From assembly GCA_964639235.1 (NCBI GenBank), contig CAZXDN010000006.1, positions 7,477-71,476 on the forward strand: a DNA stretch of 64,000 bases, written 5' to 3'. A model generated the notes under the pieces. That model did no database searches, was not told the origin of the DNA, and saw only the letters and a program-made list of their open reading frames with translations. The translations under genes were made by a program, and so were the position numbers. Below are positions 10,960 through 23,436 of the stretch, piece after piece. Position 1 is the stretch's first letter, and each line of letters starts with the position of its first letter. The stretch is from an uncultured Methanotrichaceae archaeon. GTDB taxonomy: Archaea > Halobacteriota > Methanosarcinia > Methanotrichales > Methanotrichaceae.

Positions 10960-11856
10960 ATGAGCGTGCCAATAGATAGGGCGATCATCAGGACGGGGAG
11001 CGTAAGATCTAGCAGCTTCTTTAGGGACTGCGTTTCAGGCCACTGGGTTGACTTTCGGGTCAGCTTTCCTGAGAGGTTTGTGGGAGACCTGCCGAAGATA
11101 ATCATAACTCCAAACGATCTAAACGTCCAGGGCAACTACAATCCAGCTGTAGTGGGAATGGTAAGAGACGTCACCCATTCTGAGTTCTACATCTCGGCCA
11201 AGAACTCGGATCTGGCAGAGGGCTTTGCGGGCTTCAACTGGATGGCTGTGCATGAGGCCTCTGGCAGGCGGTCGTCGAACCACATTGGAATGACAGGAGG
11301 AACTCTTGAGCCAAAGCACTTCCAGCCAGACGGGGTGCACGGCGACTGGCAGTCCTGGCCTGTCAGCTTCGGCTCTCCTCTGGACGAAACGCCAGTTGTG
11401 CTATTGTGCCCCTGCGACCACCACGTCTCTCAGAGCCTGGCTGCAGCTGTGGGAACTGCAAGGACCCCTGGCCCTGAGGGCTTCACTCTGGCTGCGAGAA
11501 GCTCAGACTGCTCTTTTGGCAGCTGCAACTTCTCTTATCTAGCGCTCTCTGACAGCGGCAAGAACGCCTTCTCGAAGATCGACTCAGGCTGGGTCACCAT
11601 GAAGAGGTTTGAGAAGGACTGCGCTCCTGGTGACTGGCAGCACTGGCTGGTAAAGTTCCACGAGCCCTTTGAGAATTCGCCTCTCGTATTCCTCACTGCC
11701 CACGGCGGTTCCTCAAGCGTGGAGCTGGACCACTTCCCCAGGATCACGGCAGTTGGCATATCCCAGAGGGTAACTGAAGAGGGCTTCTTGCTGGCTGCGC
11801 GAAACCCTGAGTGCTGGGAGGGATACTGCGGATTCTACTGGGTGGCAGTTGGTTAA
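10960..11856 (+). CDS. Protein made of three tandem H-type-lectin-like domains, with no signal peptide
   Basis: There is a GAGGTGG SD. Three repeats of about 98 aa each end in a (GF/EF)x...W(M/V)A(V/L) pattern: WVDFRVSFPERF...THSEFYISAKN...GFNWMAVHE; WQSWPVSFGSPLDETPVV...EGFTLAARS...FSYLAL; WQHWLVKFHEPFENSPLV...EGFLLAARN...GFYWVAVG. This resembles the H_lectin domain consensus. Confidence 0.55.
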   Translation: MSVPIDRAIIRTGSVRSSSFFRDCVSGHWVDFRVSFPERFVGDLPKIIITPNDLNVQGNYNPAVVGMVRDVTHSEFYISAKNSDLAEGFAGFNWMAVHEASGRRSSNHIGMTGGTLEPKHFQPDGVHGDWQSWPVSFGSPLDETPVVLLCPCDHHVSQSLAAAVGTARTPGPEGFTLAARSSDCSFGSCNFSYLALSDSGKNAFSKIDSGWVTMKRFEKDCAPGDWQHWLVKFHEPFENSPLVFLTAHGGSSSVELDHFPRITAVGISQRVTEEGFLLAARNPECWEGYCGFYWVAVG

Positions 11857-11929
11857 TTATTCCATATCGATAAATCTTCATGAGCGGAGCTGGGTTTATC
11901 TCCTATCAGGTCATCATCTGAACACGCCA

Positions 11930-12373
11930 ATGAGCCGAGAAGGAGATCTGGGTGAAGACGATGTTGGGTCGCTTCTGACTGACAGGCAGATCCAGGTGCT
12001 GGAGCTTCGCTTAAAGGGCCATTCCCAGCAGGAGGTGGCTGAGATCATGGGCACTACCAGGTCCAACATAAGCATCATGGAGAAGAGGGCGCACCAGAAT
12101 ATAGCCAGGGCCAGGCGCACGATACTCCAGTGGAAGATGATCCAGGCGCCCATCTCTGTGAAGGTCCAGGCAGGAGCCGACCTGTTCGACCTGCCCTCCA
12201 GGATCTTCGCTGCTGCAGACGTGAAAGGAATCCAGCTTCCAGTCACCTCAACTGATATAATCTACCAGCTCAGGGTCAAGGCGCCCCAGATCTCAAAGAA
12301 GAGGGCTGTGGCAAGGGAGATAGAGATCTTCGTCACCCGCGAGGGAGACGTGCTTCTGGACGACCTGGATTAG
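11930..12373 (+). CDS. tfx: Tfx-family DNA-binding transcriptional regulator
   Basis: LLTDRQIQVLELRLKGHSQQEVAEIMGTTRSNISIMEKRAHQNIARA is the LuxR/sigma-70 region-4-like HTH typical of archaeal Tfx. From the ATG at 11930 the product is 148 aa. The TTG at 11849 would overlap the previous gene. Confidence 0.75.
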   Translation: MSREGDLGEDDVGSLLTDRQIQVLELRLKGHSQQEVAEIMGTTRSNISIMEKRAHQNIARARRTILQWKMIQAPISVKVQAGADLFDLPSRIFAAADVKGIQLPVTSTDIIYQLRVKAPQISKKRAVAREIEIFVTREGDVLLDDLD

Positions 12374-12466
12374 CTTTTTATGGGCTCTCCCCTTTGCAGT
12401 CCCTGATCTCTGCAATTATCGCTGATTAGCGAAACATTTATCGTTTAGGAAGCCTCTGTTCCTGCG

Positions 12467-13060
12467 ATGGGCATCATTTCGATCTTGAGGCTGCTGCCGA
12501 TTGTCTTTCTCTTGCTTTCTGTAGCAACAGCCAAGGAGCCTGCGACATTTGGCAGGAGCGTGGACGACATGGTTGGCGCTTTTTCCATTGAGAAGACTGT
12601 GAAGCTGGGAGATCGCGGATTCTTCTTTGGGTCTGAGGATGCCGATCCCCTGGCGAGCCCTCCAAGCCTGGATAAGATTTCAGCCGAGATAGGAGACGAT
12701 TTGGCTCCGAGCCTCTCAGGTTTTGAGATCGATCCAGTGGCTGTGGACGCTGCATCAGGAGAGAAAGTGGGCATTACAGCCCACGTCCTGGACGACCAGG
12801 CTGGCCTTGGCAGCGCATCGACCATAAGGTTCGTCAGCCCTTCTGGCTCACAGAGCGCAGATCTGACCCTTGCTCACCTGGTATCCGGAACCTCTAAAGA
12901 TGGAATTTACTCAGAGAGCATAGCCCTTGACCAGGACAGCGAGAAGGGCACCTGGGCACTGGAGTCGCTCACGCTTGTAGACGGCGCTGGAAACAGCAGG
13001 GTCCTTACTGGAGACGATCTGGCAGAGATGAACCTGCCACACCAGTTCACAGTAGCTTGA
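12467..13060 (+). CDS. Secreted protein of unknown function
   Basis: It has a signal peptide (MGIISILRLLPIVFLLLSVATA). The C-terminal half is beta-rich. No family was recognised. Confidence 0.55.
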   Translation: MGIISILRLLPIVFLLLSVATAKEPATFGRSVDDMVGAFSIEKTVKLGDRGFFFGSEDADPLASPPSLDKISAEIGDDLAPSLSGFEIDPVAVDAASGEKVGITAHVLDDQAGLGSASTIRFVSPSGSQSADLTLAHLVSGTSKDGIYSESIALDQDSEKGTWALESLTLVDGAGNSRVLTGDDLAEMNLPHQFTVA

Positions 13061-13114
13061 TTTGGGCGATGTCAGGTCTGGCCTGAAGGTCAGGTTCAGC
13101 TCAACTGCTCTCAA

Positions 13115-13531
13115 TTACTCTCCTATGATCTGGACCACGAGCTTTCTATTTCTGGGCCTGTTATCAAGGTCTATGAAGACTATCTGCTGCCAGGTGCCAA
13201 GCATCATCTCTCTTCCTGAGAATGGAACTGTCAGGCTTGGGCCGAGGATGGAGGCGCGCACATGCGAGTGCCCATTTCCGTCTCCCCACCTGAGGTTGTG
13301 GGAGTACTCAACTCCCTCAGGCGCAATGCGCTCAAGCGCATCCCCAAGGTCTTTTACCAGGCCAGGCTCGTGCTCGATTGTGGTCACAGCTCCAGTTGCA
13401 CCTGGGACGAAGACCACCACAGCCCCGGAAGAGATGCCTGATTCGCGCACGGCTTCTCCAACCTGGGAAGTTACGTCCACCATCTCTCCATCGCCTCTTG
13501 TGCCAAACTCCAGATATCTCGTTGCTATCAA
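13115..13531 (-). CDS. yjbQ: YjbQ/UPF0047 family (secondary thiamine-phosphate synthase) protein
   Basis: The length is 138 aa. The motifs TTIEHEPGL, GNGHSHVRASILGPS and GTWQQIVFIDLD are characteristic of UPF0047. Confidence 0.85.
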   Translation of the reverse strand: MIATRYLEFGTRGDGEMVDVTSQVGEAVRESGISSGAVVVFVPGATGAVTTIEHEPGLVKDLGDALERIAPEGVEYSHNLRWGDGNGHSHVRASILGPSLTVPFSGREMMLGTWQQIVFIDLDNRPRNRKLVVQIIGE

Positions 13532-13616
13532 ATCATCACCTGCGGCTCGTTAACTTGAGCTAGCGAGGCTAAAAAATTATTTATTGGCATCGATAGCAGA
13601 GTAATCTGGTGCACAG

Positions 13617-14549
13617 ATGGGCAGCGAGGATTACTACAGCGCAGTGAGAAGGGCACTTCTCGCCATATTCATAGCAAACGTGGCAGTCGCAGCCCTCAAG
13701 GGAATCTATGGCCTCTACACAGGGTCAATTTCCATGACCACAGACGGTCTCCACTCTTTCTTCGACAGCGCCTCAAACATAATAGGCCTGGTTGGGATCT
13801 ACGTGGCCTCCAGGCCTCCTGACAAGCAGTATCCTTATGGACACGGCAAGTTCGAGACTTTTGCCTCCATAGGAATTGCAGTCCTCCTGTTCACCACCTG
13901 CTTCCAGGTGATCGAGGCCTCAATATCCAGGTTTCTCAACCCTCTGGTGCCAGAGGTCACAAACCTCAGCTTTGCCATAATGCTGGGAACTCTGGCGCTG
14001 AATATCGGCGTCTCTCTGTACGAGTACGCCCTCGGAAAGAAGCTCGGAAGCAGCATACTCGTTGCAGACTCGATGCACACCAGAAGCGACATCTACGCCT
14101 CTTTAGGGGTGATCTTGGGACTGGCAACTGTGCGGCTGGGCTATCCAATTGCCGATCCTCTGATCGCGCTGCTGATCACAGGGATCATAGTGCACACGGG
14201 AGTTGAGATCATCAGGGATAGCTCCAAGGTGCTTCTGGATAAGGCCTTCATAGATGAGGATGTGATAAAGAGGATTGCGGAGTCTGTAGAGGGGGTTTGC
14301 AGCTGCCACAGGATAAGGACTCGCGGGCAGCCTGGCATGATCTACATAGACCTGCACATAGGCGTTGATTCATCTCTCTCCATTGGAAGAGCACACGACA
14401 TCGCCGTGGCCGTAGAGGAGAAGATAGCAATGGCGCTTCCGGGATCTGAAGACGTGGTCGTGCACCTGGAGCCAAGAGATTACTGCGATATCAGGGCGGA
14501 TGGAAGAGACGGGGAGATGGCCGGAAAAGAGAAGGACGGCAAGGCCTGA
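13617..14549 (+). CDS. Cation diffusion facilitator (CDF) family metal efflux transporter
   Basis: It has six TM helices with HSFFDSASN and HTRSDIYAS (HxxxD) metal-site motifs, plus a cytoplasmic C-terminal domain (HRIRTRGQPGMIYIDLHI). Confidence 0.9.
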   Translation: MGSEDYYSAVRRALLAIFIANVAVAALKGIYGLYTGSISMTTDGLHSFFDSASNIIGLVGIYVASRPPDKQYPYGHGKFETFASIGIAVLLFTTCFQVIEASISRFLNPLVPEVTNLSFAIMLGTLALNIGVSLYEYALGKKLGSSILVADSMHTRSDIYASLGVILGLATVRLGYPIADPLIALLITGIIVHTGVEIIRDSSKVLLDKAFIDEDVIKRIAESVEGVCSCHRIRTRGQPGMIYIDLHIGVDSSLSIGRAHDIAVAVEEKIAMALPGSEDVVVHLEPRDYCDIRADGRDGEMAGKEKDGKA

Positions 14550-18151: not shown

Positions 18152-18248
18152 GGCGACTGTCTTAATTTTATTTTATCAATCCGACCACTATATTCATTAA
18201 TCCCAAATGTGCATAGTCTCTACGAACACTGCCAACGGGGGATAGTTA

Positions 18249-18596
18249 GTGCCTGGTTCAAACGTCGAGAGCGAGTTATCGAGCGCTGCCCAAACGGGAT
18301 CAGCGCCAATTCTGGTGGAGCTGGTGCCCAGGTCCGGGTCTGTGCAGGCGAGCGTTTCAGCGCTTTCCAAGGAGAATGCCGGCGTAGAGTCAGTAGAGGC
18401 CATGAGCAGCGCCATGAGCCTGATCCAGTCAATGGCTCAGTGCCTCATAGCAGCCATTGGCGATGGCGCTGGAAGCCTTGGCCCTTCCGGAGCTGAGATC
18501 GATTTTGGGATCAGGTTCGATGCCGATGGCGAGGCCTTCCTTGCCAGGTCCGGGCCTGAGGCTGCCTTAGGGGTGAAGCTGATCTGGATACGCTGA
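18249..18596 (+). CDS. Small protein resembling the Trypco2 / CU044_2847 family (trypsin-co-occurring domain 2)
   Basis: The GTG start follows GGGGGA. The product is 115 aa. An N-terminal ILVELVP...G strand, a central helical segment (VEAMSSAMSLIQSMAQCLIAAIG) and the C-terminal AEIDFGIRFDADGEAFLARSGPEAALGVKLIW match my recollection of the family pattern (evEFGlkl.aeaGavia+.g.ea.f+V.L.W). It lies 97 bp downstream of the CHAT gene on the same strand. Confidence 0.55.
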   Translation: MPGSNVESELSSAAQTGSAPILVELVPRSGSVQASVSALSKENAGVESVEAMSSAMSLIQSMAQCLIAAIGDGAGSLGPSGAEIDFGIRFDADGEAFLARSGPEAALGVKLIWIR

Positions 18597-18728: not shown

Positions 18729-20129
18729 ATGACTCTCATGTACTTCAGCACAAACGGCCACCCGGAGCACGTGGACTTTAAAAAGGCGCTTCTGGTAGGC
18801 CAGGCGCCGGACAAGGGGCTCTACATGCCAGAGAAGATTCCAGCAATCCCCAGAGATGAAATCATCGATTTCTCAGGCAAGAGCTATCCAGAGGTCGCCT
18901 ACAGGGTTCTCCTCCCTTATCTTCAGGGATTGGTTCCAGAGGACCGGTTAAGAGCAATCCTCAAGGACGCCTACAGCTACGACCTGCCAGTGGAGACTGT
19001 CTTTCCGGGCAAGTACGTAATGAGGCTCGATCGCGGCCCCACATGCTCGTTTAAAGACTTCGCAGCCAGGCTCATGGGCAGGCTGATCCAGTATTTTCTG
19101 AGCCTTGAGGGAAAGAGGATAGTCATCTTGACTGCAACCTCAGGAGACACGGGGTCCGCTGTGGCCCAGGCATTCTATGGCCTTGAGGGGATAGATGTCG
19201 TTGTCCTCTTCCCGAGAGACGAGGTGACCGAGAGGCAGCGCAGGCAGATGACCACACTTGGCAGGAACGTCTCAGCCGTAGCAGTCGACGGCAAGTTCGA
19301 CGACTGCCAGGCGCTAGTCAAGCAGGCATTCGCTGATGGAGAGCTAAAAGGTCTCAACCTCTCTTCAGCGAACTCGATCAACGTGGGACGGCTCCTGCCT
19401 CAGGCGGTGTACTACTTCTACGCCTACTCCAGGGCTGCAAAAGACGGCCAGGAGGCGGTATTCTCGGTTCCCAGCGGCAACTTCGGAGACCTGATGGGAG
19501 GGCTCATAGCCATGAAGATGGGGCTTCCAGTGAGGAAGTTCGTGGCTGCCACAAACGAGAACGACGAGTTCCCTGAGTTCATGAAGACAGGAGTCTACAG
19601 GCCCATACGTCCCAGCAGGAACTGCATCTCCAACGCCATGAACGTGGGCCATCCCTCGAACCTGGCAAGGGTTTTCTCCCTTTACGGTGGCGAGATGGAC
19701 GAGACAGGAATAGTGCACAAGATGCCAGACCTGGAGGAGATGAGAAAGAACCTCTTTGCAGTCTCGATCTCAGATGAGGAGACACGGCAGACCATAAAGG
19801 ACGCTTATGCCAGTTATGGAGTCGTGCTCGAGCCCCACGGCGCTGTGGGGTGGGCTGGGCTTCTTCACTACTTGAGGGAGGTCGAAGACTGGTCGCCCTG
19901 CATCTCTCTTGAGACTGCAGACCCAGCCAAGTTCCCAGATGAGATCATACGGCTGATAGGCATAGAGCCCAAGGTCCCTGAGGCCATGTCTTGCTTAGAC
20001 GAGCTTGAGGAGAAGTTCGAGAGGATGGACAACAGCTATAATGGGTTAAAATCGCTCCTGCTGGGTTTATTTGGGGAGTCTTCGAGAGATGGCGATAGAG
20101 CAGGGGATAAGGCAGCTGTGCGTACTTAA
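18729..20129 (+). CDS. thrC: Threonine synthase
   Basis: The PLP-lysine motif CSFKDFAARL and the SSGNFG-like SGNFGD motif are present. The length is 466 aa. Confidence 0.9.
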   Translation: MTLMYFSTNGHPEHVDFKKALLVGQAPDKGLYMPEKIPAIPRDEIIDFSGKSYPEVAYRVLLPYLQGLVPEDRLRAILKDAYSYDLPVETVFPGKYVMRLDRGPTCSFKDFAARLMGRLIQYFLSLEGKRIVILTATSGDTGSAVAQAFYGLEGIDVVVLFPRDEVTERQRRQMTTLGRNVSAVAVDGKFDDCQALVKQAFADGELKGLNLSSANSINVGRLLPQAVYYFYAYSRAAKDGQEAVFSVPSGNFGDLMGGLIAMKMGLPVRKFVAATNENDEFPEFMKTGVYRPIRPSRNCISNAMNVGHPSNLARVFSLYGGEMDETGIVHKMPDLEEMRKNLFAVSISDEETRQTIKDAYASYGVVLEPHGAVGWAGLLHYLREVEDWSPCISLETADPAKFPDEIIRLIGIEPKVPEAMSCLDELEEKFERMDNSYNGLKSLLLGLFGESSRDGDRAGDKAAVRT

Positions 20130-21418: not shown

Positions 21419-21826
21419 ATGAAACTGAGGGTAGTGAGCTCGAAGAAGGAGATCTCTGACCTGAGTCGCAACGAACAGGTGGTTCACCTGGCCTTCCGCG
21501 CTTCGAATATGGATGTCATGGGCCTTGTCCAGTCATGTCCGAGGCTCAGAGCCGTCCAGATCCCTCCATCCTATCACGAGACCATGTCCAAAGCAGCCCA
21601 GCAGTTCCTTGAAATCCAGGGAGTAGAGCTGCTCAGAGGAGATGTCTGGGGTCACCGCAAGGATATAGATGAATATTATACCATCAGCGACAAGGTAATA
21701 CGAAGGATATCGAATTTGATGGCCGAGGGCAACAGCGTTGACGAGACTGTGAAGCGAGTCCAGAGGGAGACCAAGCTCTCTGAGGATCTGATAAGGTACA
21801 TACTCAAGGAGCAGGTTCTGGCCTGA
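21419..21826 (+). CDS. Conserved archaeal hypothetical protein (DUF1699-like)
   Basis: It is 135 aa and soluble. The pattern MKLRVVSSKKEI...VHLAFRASNMDVMGLVQSCPRLRAVQIPPSY matches my recollection of DUF1699. Confidence 0.45.
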   Translation: MKLRVVSSKKEISDLSRNEQVVHLAFRASNMDVMGLVQSCPRLRAVQIPPSYHETMSKAAQQFLEIQGVELLRGDVWGHRKDIDEYYTISDKVIRRISNLMAEGNSVDETVKRVQRETKLSEDLIRYILKEQVLA

Positions 21827-23166: not shown

Positions 23167-23436
23167 ATGATCTGCGTTCACCTCAGGGTCTCAGGCCTGG
23201 TCCAGGGAGTGAATTTCAGATCTTACACCAGGTCCAAGGCACAGGAGCTTGGGGTAAATGGGTGGGTCAGAAACCTCCCTGGCGGGGGCGTTGAGGCTGT
23301 GCTTGAAGGTGACAGGAAGAAGGTGGGAGAGCTGATAAGCCTGATGAAGTCAGGACCTTCTGGAGCTATGGTCTCTGGGATGGAGCTCTCTGAGATTAAG
23401 TGCAAGGGCTACGAGAATTTTTCGATCAATTACTGA
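23167..23436 (+). CDS. acyP: Acylphosphatase
   Basis: It is 89 aa and carries VSGLVQGVNFRSYT...GWVRNLPGGGVE, the acylphosphatase signature. Confidence 0.9.
   Translation: MICVHLRVSGLVQGVNFRSYTRSKAQELGVNGWVRNLPGGGVEAVLEGDRKKVGELISLMKSGPSGAMVSGMELSEIKCKGYENFSINY

Follow-up and report, generated by a model that had tools for sequence, protein, structure and literature searches.

The names Trypco1 and Trypco2 were given to domains that occur, one to the exclusion of the other, beside trypsin-like peptidases in NTPase conflict systems (Kaur et al. 2020 eLife, PMC7159879). The two have since been merged as Pepco, a pore effector pre-assembled as a beta-barrel and licensed by proteolysis (Evans et al. 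2025, bioRxiv 10.1101/2025.11.14.688446). According to the latter work, the Pepco of Streptomyces subrutilus 10-1-1 (SsPepco) forms SDS-resistant 9-10-mer beta-barrels, the trypsin domain of Avs4 cuts it after Ile97 (I97/R98), removing a charged, Pro-rich tail of ~2 kDa, and the cleaved protein kills cells, for which the amphipathic helix is required. By late 2025, pore formation and proteolytic licensing had been demonstrated for only one Pepco, bacterial and trypsin-coupled. In the same preprint, Pepco is reported beside both serine and cysteine proteases, and in DGR loci, according to another paper, Trypco domains have trypsin-like or caspase-like genes nearby, so that a Pepco gene beside a cysteine protease is not new in itself.

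Here, we analyze a 64-kb stretch of DNA (hereafter, the window) from an uncultured Methanotrichaceae archaeon, in which a gene of this family lies directly downstream of a gene coding for a CHAT-STAND-TPR protein (Table 1). The gene adds an orphan from archaea, in a non-canonical context, to an effector family already known, and the locus is not a new system.

Table 1. Coordinates in the window of the two genes, the spacer between them, and the first gene downstream.
Feature	Position	Strand	Content or basis
CHAT-STAND(AAA_16)-TPR protein, 1113 aa	14810..18151	+	Pfam domains, dyad conservation
Spacer, 97 nt	18152..18248	+	T-rich stretch, AT-rich box, SD-like motif
Pepco/Trypco1 (CU044_2847-family) gene	18249..18596	+	115 aa, GTG start; profile matches, dN/dS, orthologous ATG
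Threonine synthase (thrC)	18729..20129	+	First gene of the housekeeping block syntenic with Pepco; context only

The small gene is a member of the Pepco/Trypco1 family

The ORF was present in the ORF list exactly as an earlier note on this DNA had given it, and the end of the CHAT gene confirms the same-strand gap that the note had measured between the two. We consider it virtually certain that it is a real gene and that it belongs to Pepco/Trypco1. The product matched the Pfam model of Trypco1 (PF19493) with an E value of 3.9e-11 and 43.8 bits (gathering score, 24.6), residues 19-113 corresponding to profile positions 7-96 of 98, and the NCBIfam model CU044_2847 (NF041216) with 33.3 bits against a cut-off of 23. 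Its assignment in the note to Trypco2/CU044_2847 was therefore right for the second name and wrong for the first, since the Trypco2 model gave no match at E<=1, and the only other Pfam listing at that level was a sub-threshold match to DUF5719. Scans of the protein with PADLOC and PHROGs gave no match either.

A word-indexed homology search with the single protein returned only 2 matches, whereas HMMER, run exhaustively over 1.8 billion representatives, retrieved 95 relatives (E<1e-3), nearly all of 100-125 aa. Common to them are an N-terminal ILVE strand, a central helix (S48, A51, and A55), and a C-terminal ExxFG...VKLxW hairpin, with F86, G87, V109, L111, and W113 nearly invariant in the family alignments. 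The strand-helix-C-terminal layout proposed before was recovered in part: in a low-confidence AlphaFold2 model (27-sequence alignment; pLDDT, 55.7), DSSP assigned a helix to residues 41-72 and strands to 81-90 and 103-112, i.e., the helix and the hairpin, while the N-terminal ILVEL strand is conserved but was not modelled. Such a low pLDDT would plausibly be compatible with an obligate oligomer. A PDB profile search with the family profile gave chance matches only, with no solved structure of a relative among them. Read from the sequence, charged and hydrophobic residues take turns along the stretch E83-I84-D85-F86-G87-I88-R89-F90-D91, a pattern also reported for the strands of the barrel.

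The coding status had been questioned because several ORFs overlap the gene in other frames. The gene was compared with an orthologue from a JGI metagenome (P0002; 108 aa, 58% identity), whose ATG start aligns with the GTG codon in the window and whose C terminus, GVKLIWIR followed by the stop, is identical. In the codon alignment of the two sequences, the Pepco frame has a pN of 0.24, a pS of 0.63, and a dN/dS of 0.21, and differences fall at 57/105 third codon positions against 18/105 second positions. Stops interrupt both other plus frames and the rival minus frame in at least one of the two sequences, and these stop-bearing frames have dN/dS values of 0.8-2.0. The two ORFs put forward as possible conserved frames, 18209-18496 (+) and 18197-18415 (-), are thus interrupted in the orthologue alignment, and with dN/dS values of at least 0.8 in their frames the matter is settled in favor of the Pepco frame. 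The third listed overlapping ORF (18220-18432, minus strand, 70 aa) has a dN/dS of 0.32 in its frame, as a frame antisense to a constrained one should. In the strain variants L035 and L036 (99.5% nucleotide identity), a C>T change at 18295 (Thr16Met) creates an in-frame ATG at codon 16, which explains why gene callers there chose a product of 100 aa instead of 115 aa. Read-through of the TGA, which would add SPPDNLTF, was considered and dropped, as P0002 stops at the same codon after the identical GVKLIWIR.

The upstream CHAT-STAND-TPR gene belongs to a large family

The neighbouring gene, described in the note as a CHAT-STAND-TPR, is indeed one. The 1113-aa protein has a CHAT domain (PF12770) at residues 87-317 (E value, 1.8e-12), a STAND P-loop NTPase of the AAA_16 type with the Walker A motif GPSGAGKS, and an array of TPRs (four TPR_12 matches, at ~790-1050). 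The caspase-fold dyad is intact, with His212 in the motif VVHLAG and Cys260 in LTGCQS. We found 59 homologues of the whole protein at E<1e-10 (P0117-P0175); those with a named source come from Methanothrix/Methanotrichaceae MAGs, with a single exception from Acetobacteraceae, which agrees with the archaeal host assumed in the note. These proteins make up a strongly expanded NLR-like family in this lineage of filamentous methanogens. In an alignment of 59 sequences, comprising all but one of the homologues together with the window protein, His212 is kept in 57/59 and Cys260 in 41/59. Incidentally, Cys260 is replaced in about a quarter of the aligned sequences, by Arg in 11 of them and by Gly, Phe, Tyr, Lys, or His in others, in paralogues that retain His212. 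These paralogues look catalytically dead and may possibly act as decoys or regulators.

The window has no other CHAT gene, and no trypsin-STAND gene was found anywhere along its 64 kb. The GC3 of both the CHAT and the Pepco genes is typical for the region, giving no sign of recent co-acquisition.

The two genes have independent genomic contexts

Related loci were searched with an alignment of 4 close sequences as the query. The closest relatives of the Pepco gene form a narrow clade, made up of P0002 (at locus L001), the P0003-type proteins (L015/L016), and L002. At all four loci (L001, L002, L015, and L016), the gene order is the same: Pepco, thrC, and genes coding for a 327-aa protein, a DUF1699 protein, and proteins of 168 and 227 aa, and at L016 an 89-aa gene comes next, with 84% identity to window positions 23167-23436. 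By the look of their sequences, we take the 227-aa protein to be a possible triosephosphate isomerase and the 89-aa one a possible acylphosphatase. Identity to the relatives is 47-58% for CHAT and Pepco, 76-78% for thrC, and 95-97% for DUF1699. The DUF1699 protein (135 aa; window 21419-21826, plus strand) stands out in this block, where the other neighbours are 59-65% identical, and its conservation is unusually strong for a protein of unknown function. As a further observation on the block, the threonine synthase of L001 (positions 872-2321) was called as two overlapping ORFs (329 and 164 aa), with a change of frame near residue 280 by tblastn that could be a frameshift/pseudogene or an assembly error.

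None of the five genes upstream of Pepco in the window, CHAT included, has a homologue at L001, L002, L015, or L016. At L016, on an 84-kb contig with 7 kb of upstream sequence, the genes immediately preceding Pepco code for an M23 peptidase, an amine oxidase, and a glyoxalase; these 7 kb have no CHAT, trypsin, or STAND gene, and a protease-STAND gene is missing from both flanks. At L001, Pepco is preceded by 453 bp of AT-rich non-coding DNA. A CHAT gene was adjacent in 0/2 of the orthologous Pepco loci with a readable upstream flank, and a tblastn search of the CHAT-STAND-TPR protein against all the Pepco loci gave no match.

The CHAT gene has a conserved context of its own. Upstream of it, at 11849-14549, the window contains genes for a TFX-like regulator, DUF7743, YjbQ/UPF0047 (minus strand), and a cation-efflux CDF protein, and relatives with 41-50% identity (L031, L033/34, L037, and L039) keep DUF7743, YjbQ (minus strand), and CDF followed by CHAT. 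The maintenance of parts of this block across several Methanothrix contigs indicates that the CHAT gene is a stable chromosomal resident and not part of a mobile island. Downstream of CHAT, these relatives have unrelated genes, mostly on the opposite strand. Pepco was not found on any of eight contigs with a CHAT homologue: the family HMM had no match on L031-L034 and L037-L039, and the 379-nt tail of L040, searched by six-frame translation and blastn, had no Pepco. The region just past CHAT is a rearrangement hot spot, as L032 and L040 are 87% identical to L039 in nucleotides over the CHAT gene and yet differ downstream. For the P0003 lineage, the flank downstream of CHAT (L032) and the one upstream of Pepco (L016) did not overlap.

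Two cases deserve separate mention. In the MAG GCA_035560655.1, the CHAT stop codon lies 2 nt from the end of one contig (L039) and another contig (L002) starts inside Pepco, so that adjacency of the two genes is possible there, with the contigs breaking at both. In the second case, nucleotides 1-249 of L001 are 94% identical to a stretch ca. 2 kb downstream of the CHAT gene of L031, from the same sample. This shared 250-nt repeat suggests that the CHAT and Pepco of that relative may be neighbours, split by an inserted array of surface-protein genes. An IS insertion marked by the repeat was rejected as an explanation, as the repeat represents the sequence preceding tandem surface-protein paralogues. 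These paralogues, on the minus strand at 8634-12815 of L031, downstream of CHAT, code for proteins of 501 and 625+ aa with near-identical N termini and look like secreted surface proteins; their glycine-rich repeats are presumably a beta-helix.

Overall, the adjacency of CHAT and Pepco was found only in the window and its strain variants L035/L036. The earlier note had regarded the small ORF as a possible second component of a CHAT system; the readable Pepco loci of the relatives have no adjacent CHAT, and their CHAT loci have no Pepco, so that conserved linkage lends no support to that role.

The spacer carries putative expression signals for Pepco

The stop codon of CHAT is closely followed by a T-rich stretch (TTAATTTTATTTTAT), with its T-run at ~18163-18177, and oligo-T is the usual termination signal in archaea. 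Further along the spacer there is an AT-rich promoter-like box of 17 nt (window 18186-18202; CACTATATTCATTAATC) and, ~8 nt before the start codon, a purine-rich SD-like motif (GGGGGA/GGAGG), which in the window is the GGGGGA at ~18235-18241. From general archaeal signals, we assume that TTAATTTTATTTTAT acts as a terminator and the 18186-18202 box as a promoter. Both the box and the SD, already remarked on in the note, proved to be conserved in the alignment with L001 and L016, two orthologous loci whose upstream genes differ from those of the window. From these signals, CHAT and Pepco would seem to be transcribed as two units, and next to the tight packing of the canonical pairs the spacer arrangement here looks independent.

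Comparison with trypsin-coupled and other protease systems

The canonical organization of the family is very uniform. Of the Trypco1 loci examined, 18 have a co-directional gene directly downstream, and in 18/18 it is a Trypsin_2 gene, usually continuing into NB-ARC and TPR domains (a protein of ~1000 aa) and very closely spaced, and CHAT was the downstream gene in none of the 18. Archaea are represented among these loci by L007 (Methanosarcinales) and L009 (Methanothrix), i.e., canonical trypsin-type pairs are already present in both groups. The neighbours of homologues, whose inspection had been suggested as a check, therefore give no indication of a conserved CHAT pairing. The note had also seen here a variant architecture in which CHAT takes the place of trypsin in an archaeon; the archaeon and the CHAT neighbour hold, but the pairing is not conserved. 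Trypco1 was originally defined by a trypsin neighbour, and the neighbour here is a CHAT protein; the broader Pepco concept includes a conserved linkage to a serine or cysteine protease, which in this case extends only to the strain variants.

The window protein resembles the Pepco family in size (~100-120 aa), in its helix and hairpin, in the EFG and VKLxW-x-R motifs, and in its alternating strands, and its gene also adjoins one coding for a protease-STAND-TPR protein. However, Pepco is located upstream of Trypsin_2 in the canonical pairs and downstream of CHAT in the window, the canonical junction is very short or overlapping whereas here there is a 97-nt spacer with its own promoter-like box, and the canonical linkage to the protease contrasts with one that is not conserved in relatives. 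Similarly, the Avs4-like pairs, Trypsin_2-STAND(NB-ARC)-TPR plus Trypco1, share with the window the combination of a protease-NTPase-TPR sensor and a small Pepco, and they occur in the same taxonomic order, but the protease fold is Trypsin_2 in one and CHAT in the other, and the STAND-TPR parts have only a weak, TPR-level similarity (best blastp E value, 7e-6; no tblastn match). Homologues of the CHAT protein stand alone in all the other contexts examined, without a small effector, like the all-in-one CHAT NLRs (Dyrka et al. 2020, bioRxiv 10.1101/2020.01.06.895854), from which the locus differs in that Pepco follows CHAT, in the window's genome only. Caspase-gasdermin and caspase-like protease-EACC1 modules, in which a caspase-fold protease licenses a pore former, offer an analogy of function; there is no sequence relationship, Pepco is reported to be pre-assembled before cleavage, and the coupling is unproven here.

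Protein ends are a further point of difference. SsPepco loses a charged, Pro-rich tail of ~20 aa, and no such tail is found in the window protein, which ends in GVKLIWIR with at most 1-2 residues past the last strand. Across the Trypco1 family (loci L003-L029; proteins P0004-P0096), the last strand ends in VKLxW-x-R and is followed by tails of 0 to ~50 residues, while the P0003-type proteins stop at W-S-P. Even trypsin-coupled members can be nearly tail-less (W-T-R at L028 and W-K-S at L004), so removal of a C-terminal tail may not be the universal mode of activation. As the window protein ends at W-I-R, the removal of a long tail as in SsPepco can hardly apply literally to it. The terminal I-R resembles the I97/R98 site of SsPepco, the comparison being with the site as described in the literature only.

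Some bacterial Trypco1 genes also lack an adjacent protease, such as those at L042 (5001-5336), L012 (5980-6309), and L014 (5734-6114), which makes the protease-less Pepco a recurring state. The one at L042 is located between genes for a CoA-transferase and a creatininase.

Origin and possible function of the locus

We think it likely that the Pepco gene is an independently transcribed, vertically inherited orphan and that its adjacency to CHAT is specific to the window genome. It would have been inherited vertically, 5' of thrC, within a small sub-clade of Methanotrichaceae, a conserved promoter of its own appears to drive its transcription, and the window would represent the junction of two independently conserved blocks, one running from TFX through DUF7743, YjbQ, and CDF to CHAT and the other starting with Pepco and thrC. 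By homology to the Streptomyces protein, a multimeric beta-barrel would be built from protomers that each supply an amphipathic helix and a beta-hairpin; the barrel would stay latent until licensed by a protease and would then permeabilise the membrane and kill the cell, in abortive infection or programmed death. Pore function, the need for proteolysis, and the identity of the protease are what we infer for this protein. The most plausible candidate for the protease would be the catalytically intact CHAT-STAND-TPR next door. That it licenses Pepco, in cis here and in trans in the relatives, is a tentative proposal that keeps some credit because a chance adjacency is unlikely a priori and because one MAG and one sample each contain orthologues of the two genes.

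A dedicated two-gene CHAT-Pepco defence module, as the earlier note proposed, is doubtful. The TPRs would sense the invader, the CHAT-STAND-TPR protein would oligomerise, and its caspase-like domain would cut the adjacent Pepco and open the pore; relative to the trypsin-STAND/Pepco system, this would be a variant with another protease and the reverse gene order. In its favor, CHAT and Pepco are neighbours on one strand, 97 nt apart, the CHAT dyad and the P-loop are intact, and there are reports of Pepco together with cysteine proteases and of Trypco domains in the vicinity of caspase-like genes. Furthermore, every canonical Pepco locus that we examined adjoins a protease-STAND gene, and finding by chance a gene of protease-substrate type next to a protease-STAND gene is unlikely a priori, which favours a real coupling. 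The MAG of L002 and L039 and the sample of L001 and L031, each with orthologues of both genes, point the same way, as does the faster evolution of CHAT and Pepco compared with thrC and DUF1699. Nevertheless, the adjacency is conserved in neither direction, Pepco has its own promoter-like box with a T-rich stretch after the CHAT stop, and the gene order is inverted with respect to all the canonical pairs. The numbers of the two families do not correspond either, with 59 CHAT-STAND-TPR homologues against three lineages in the Pepco clade and Pepco on 0/8 of the homologue contigs examined, and the protein has no cleavable C-terminal tail.

A looser coupling is unlikely: the tail-less Pepco could be a shared pore executioner with its own promoter, licensed by caspase-like CHAT-STAND-TPR sensors, in cis in this genome and in trans in relatives, through a cut unlike the removal of a C-terminal tail. 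Such a cut could take away the terminal Arg after W-I or an N-terminal extension. If true, this would amount to a caspase-to-pore death pathway in an archaeon, its hub effector not being tied to any particular sensor gene.

Slightly less probable still is that Pepco is an orphan remnant whose ancestral trypsin-STAND partner was lost, with no role in defence or with a protease-independent one, and next to which CHAT lies by coincidence. The orphan Trypco1 genes found among metabolic genes (L042, L012, and L014), the lack of a protease-STAND gene within 7 kb on either side at L016, and the lack of a trypsin-STAND gene in the 64-kb window are all in line with this possibility. However, a dN/dS of 0.21, together with a promoter and an SD conserved in three lineages, argues for a maintained function, and a latent toxin without its regulator would be expected to decay. 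Finally, that there is no gene here and that one of the overlapping ORFs (which do exist, mechanically, in the ORF list) is the true coding sequence has practically no chance of being correct and is already refuted, since the Pepco frame alone stays open in the two sequences and has a match to a curated profile.

Implications

The Trypco1 family reaches the Methanotrichaceae in two forms, as canonical trypsin-STAND pairs and as a vertically inherited orphan clade. The existence of orphan, tail-less members under purifying selection suggests that the published model of activation by tail removal may not cover the whole family. The case also illustrates that gene adjacency alone can mislead the inference of two-component defence systems. 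If it were true that the CHAT neighbour licenses Pepco, these methanogens would have an archaeal pathway leading from a caspase-like protease to a pore.
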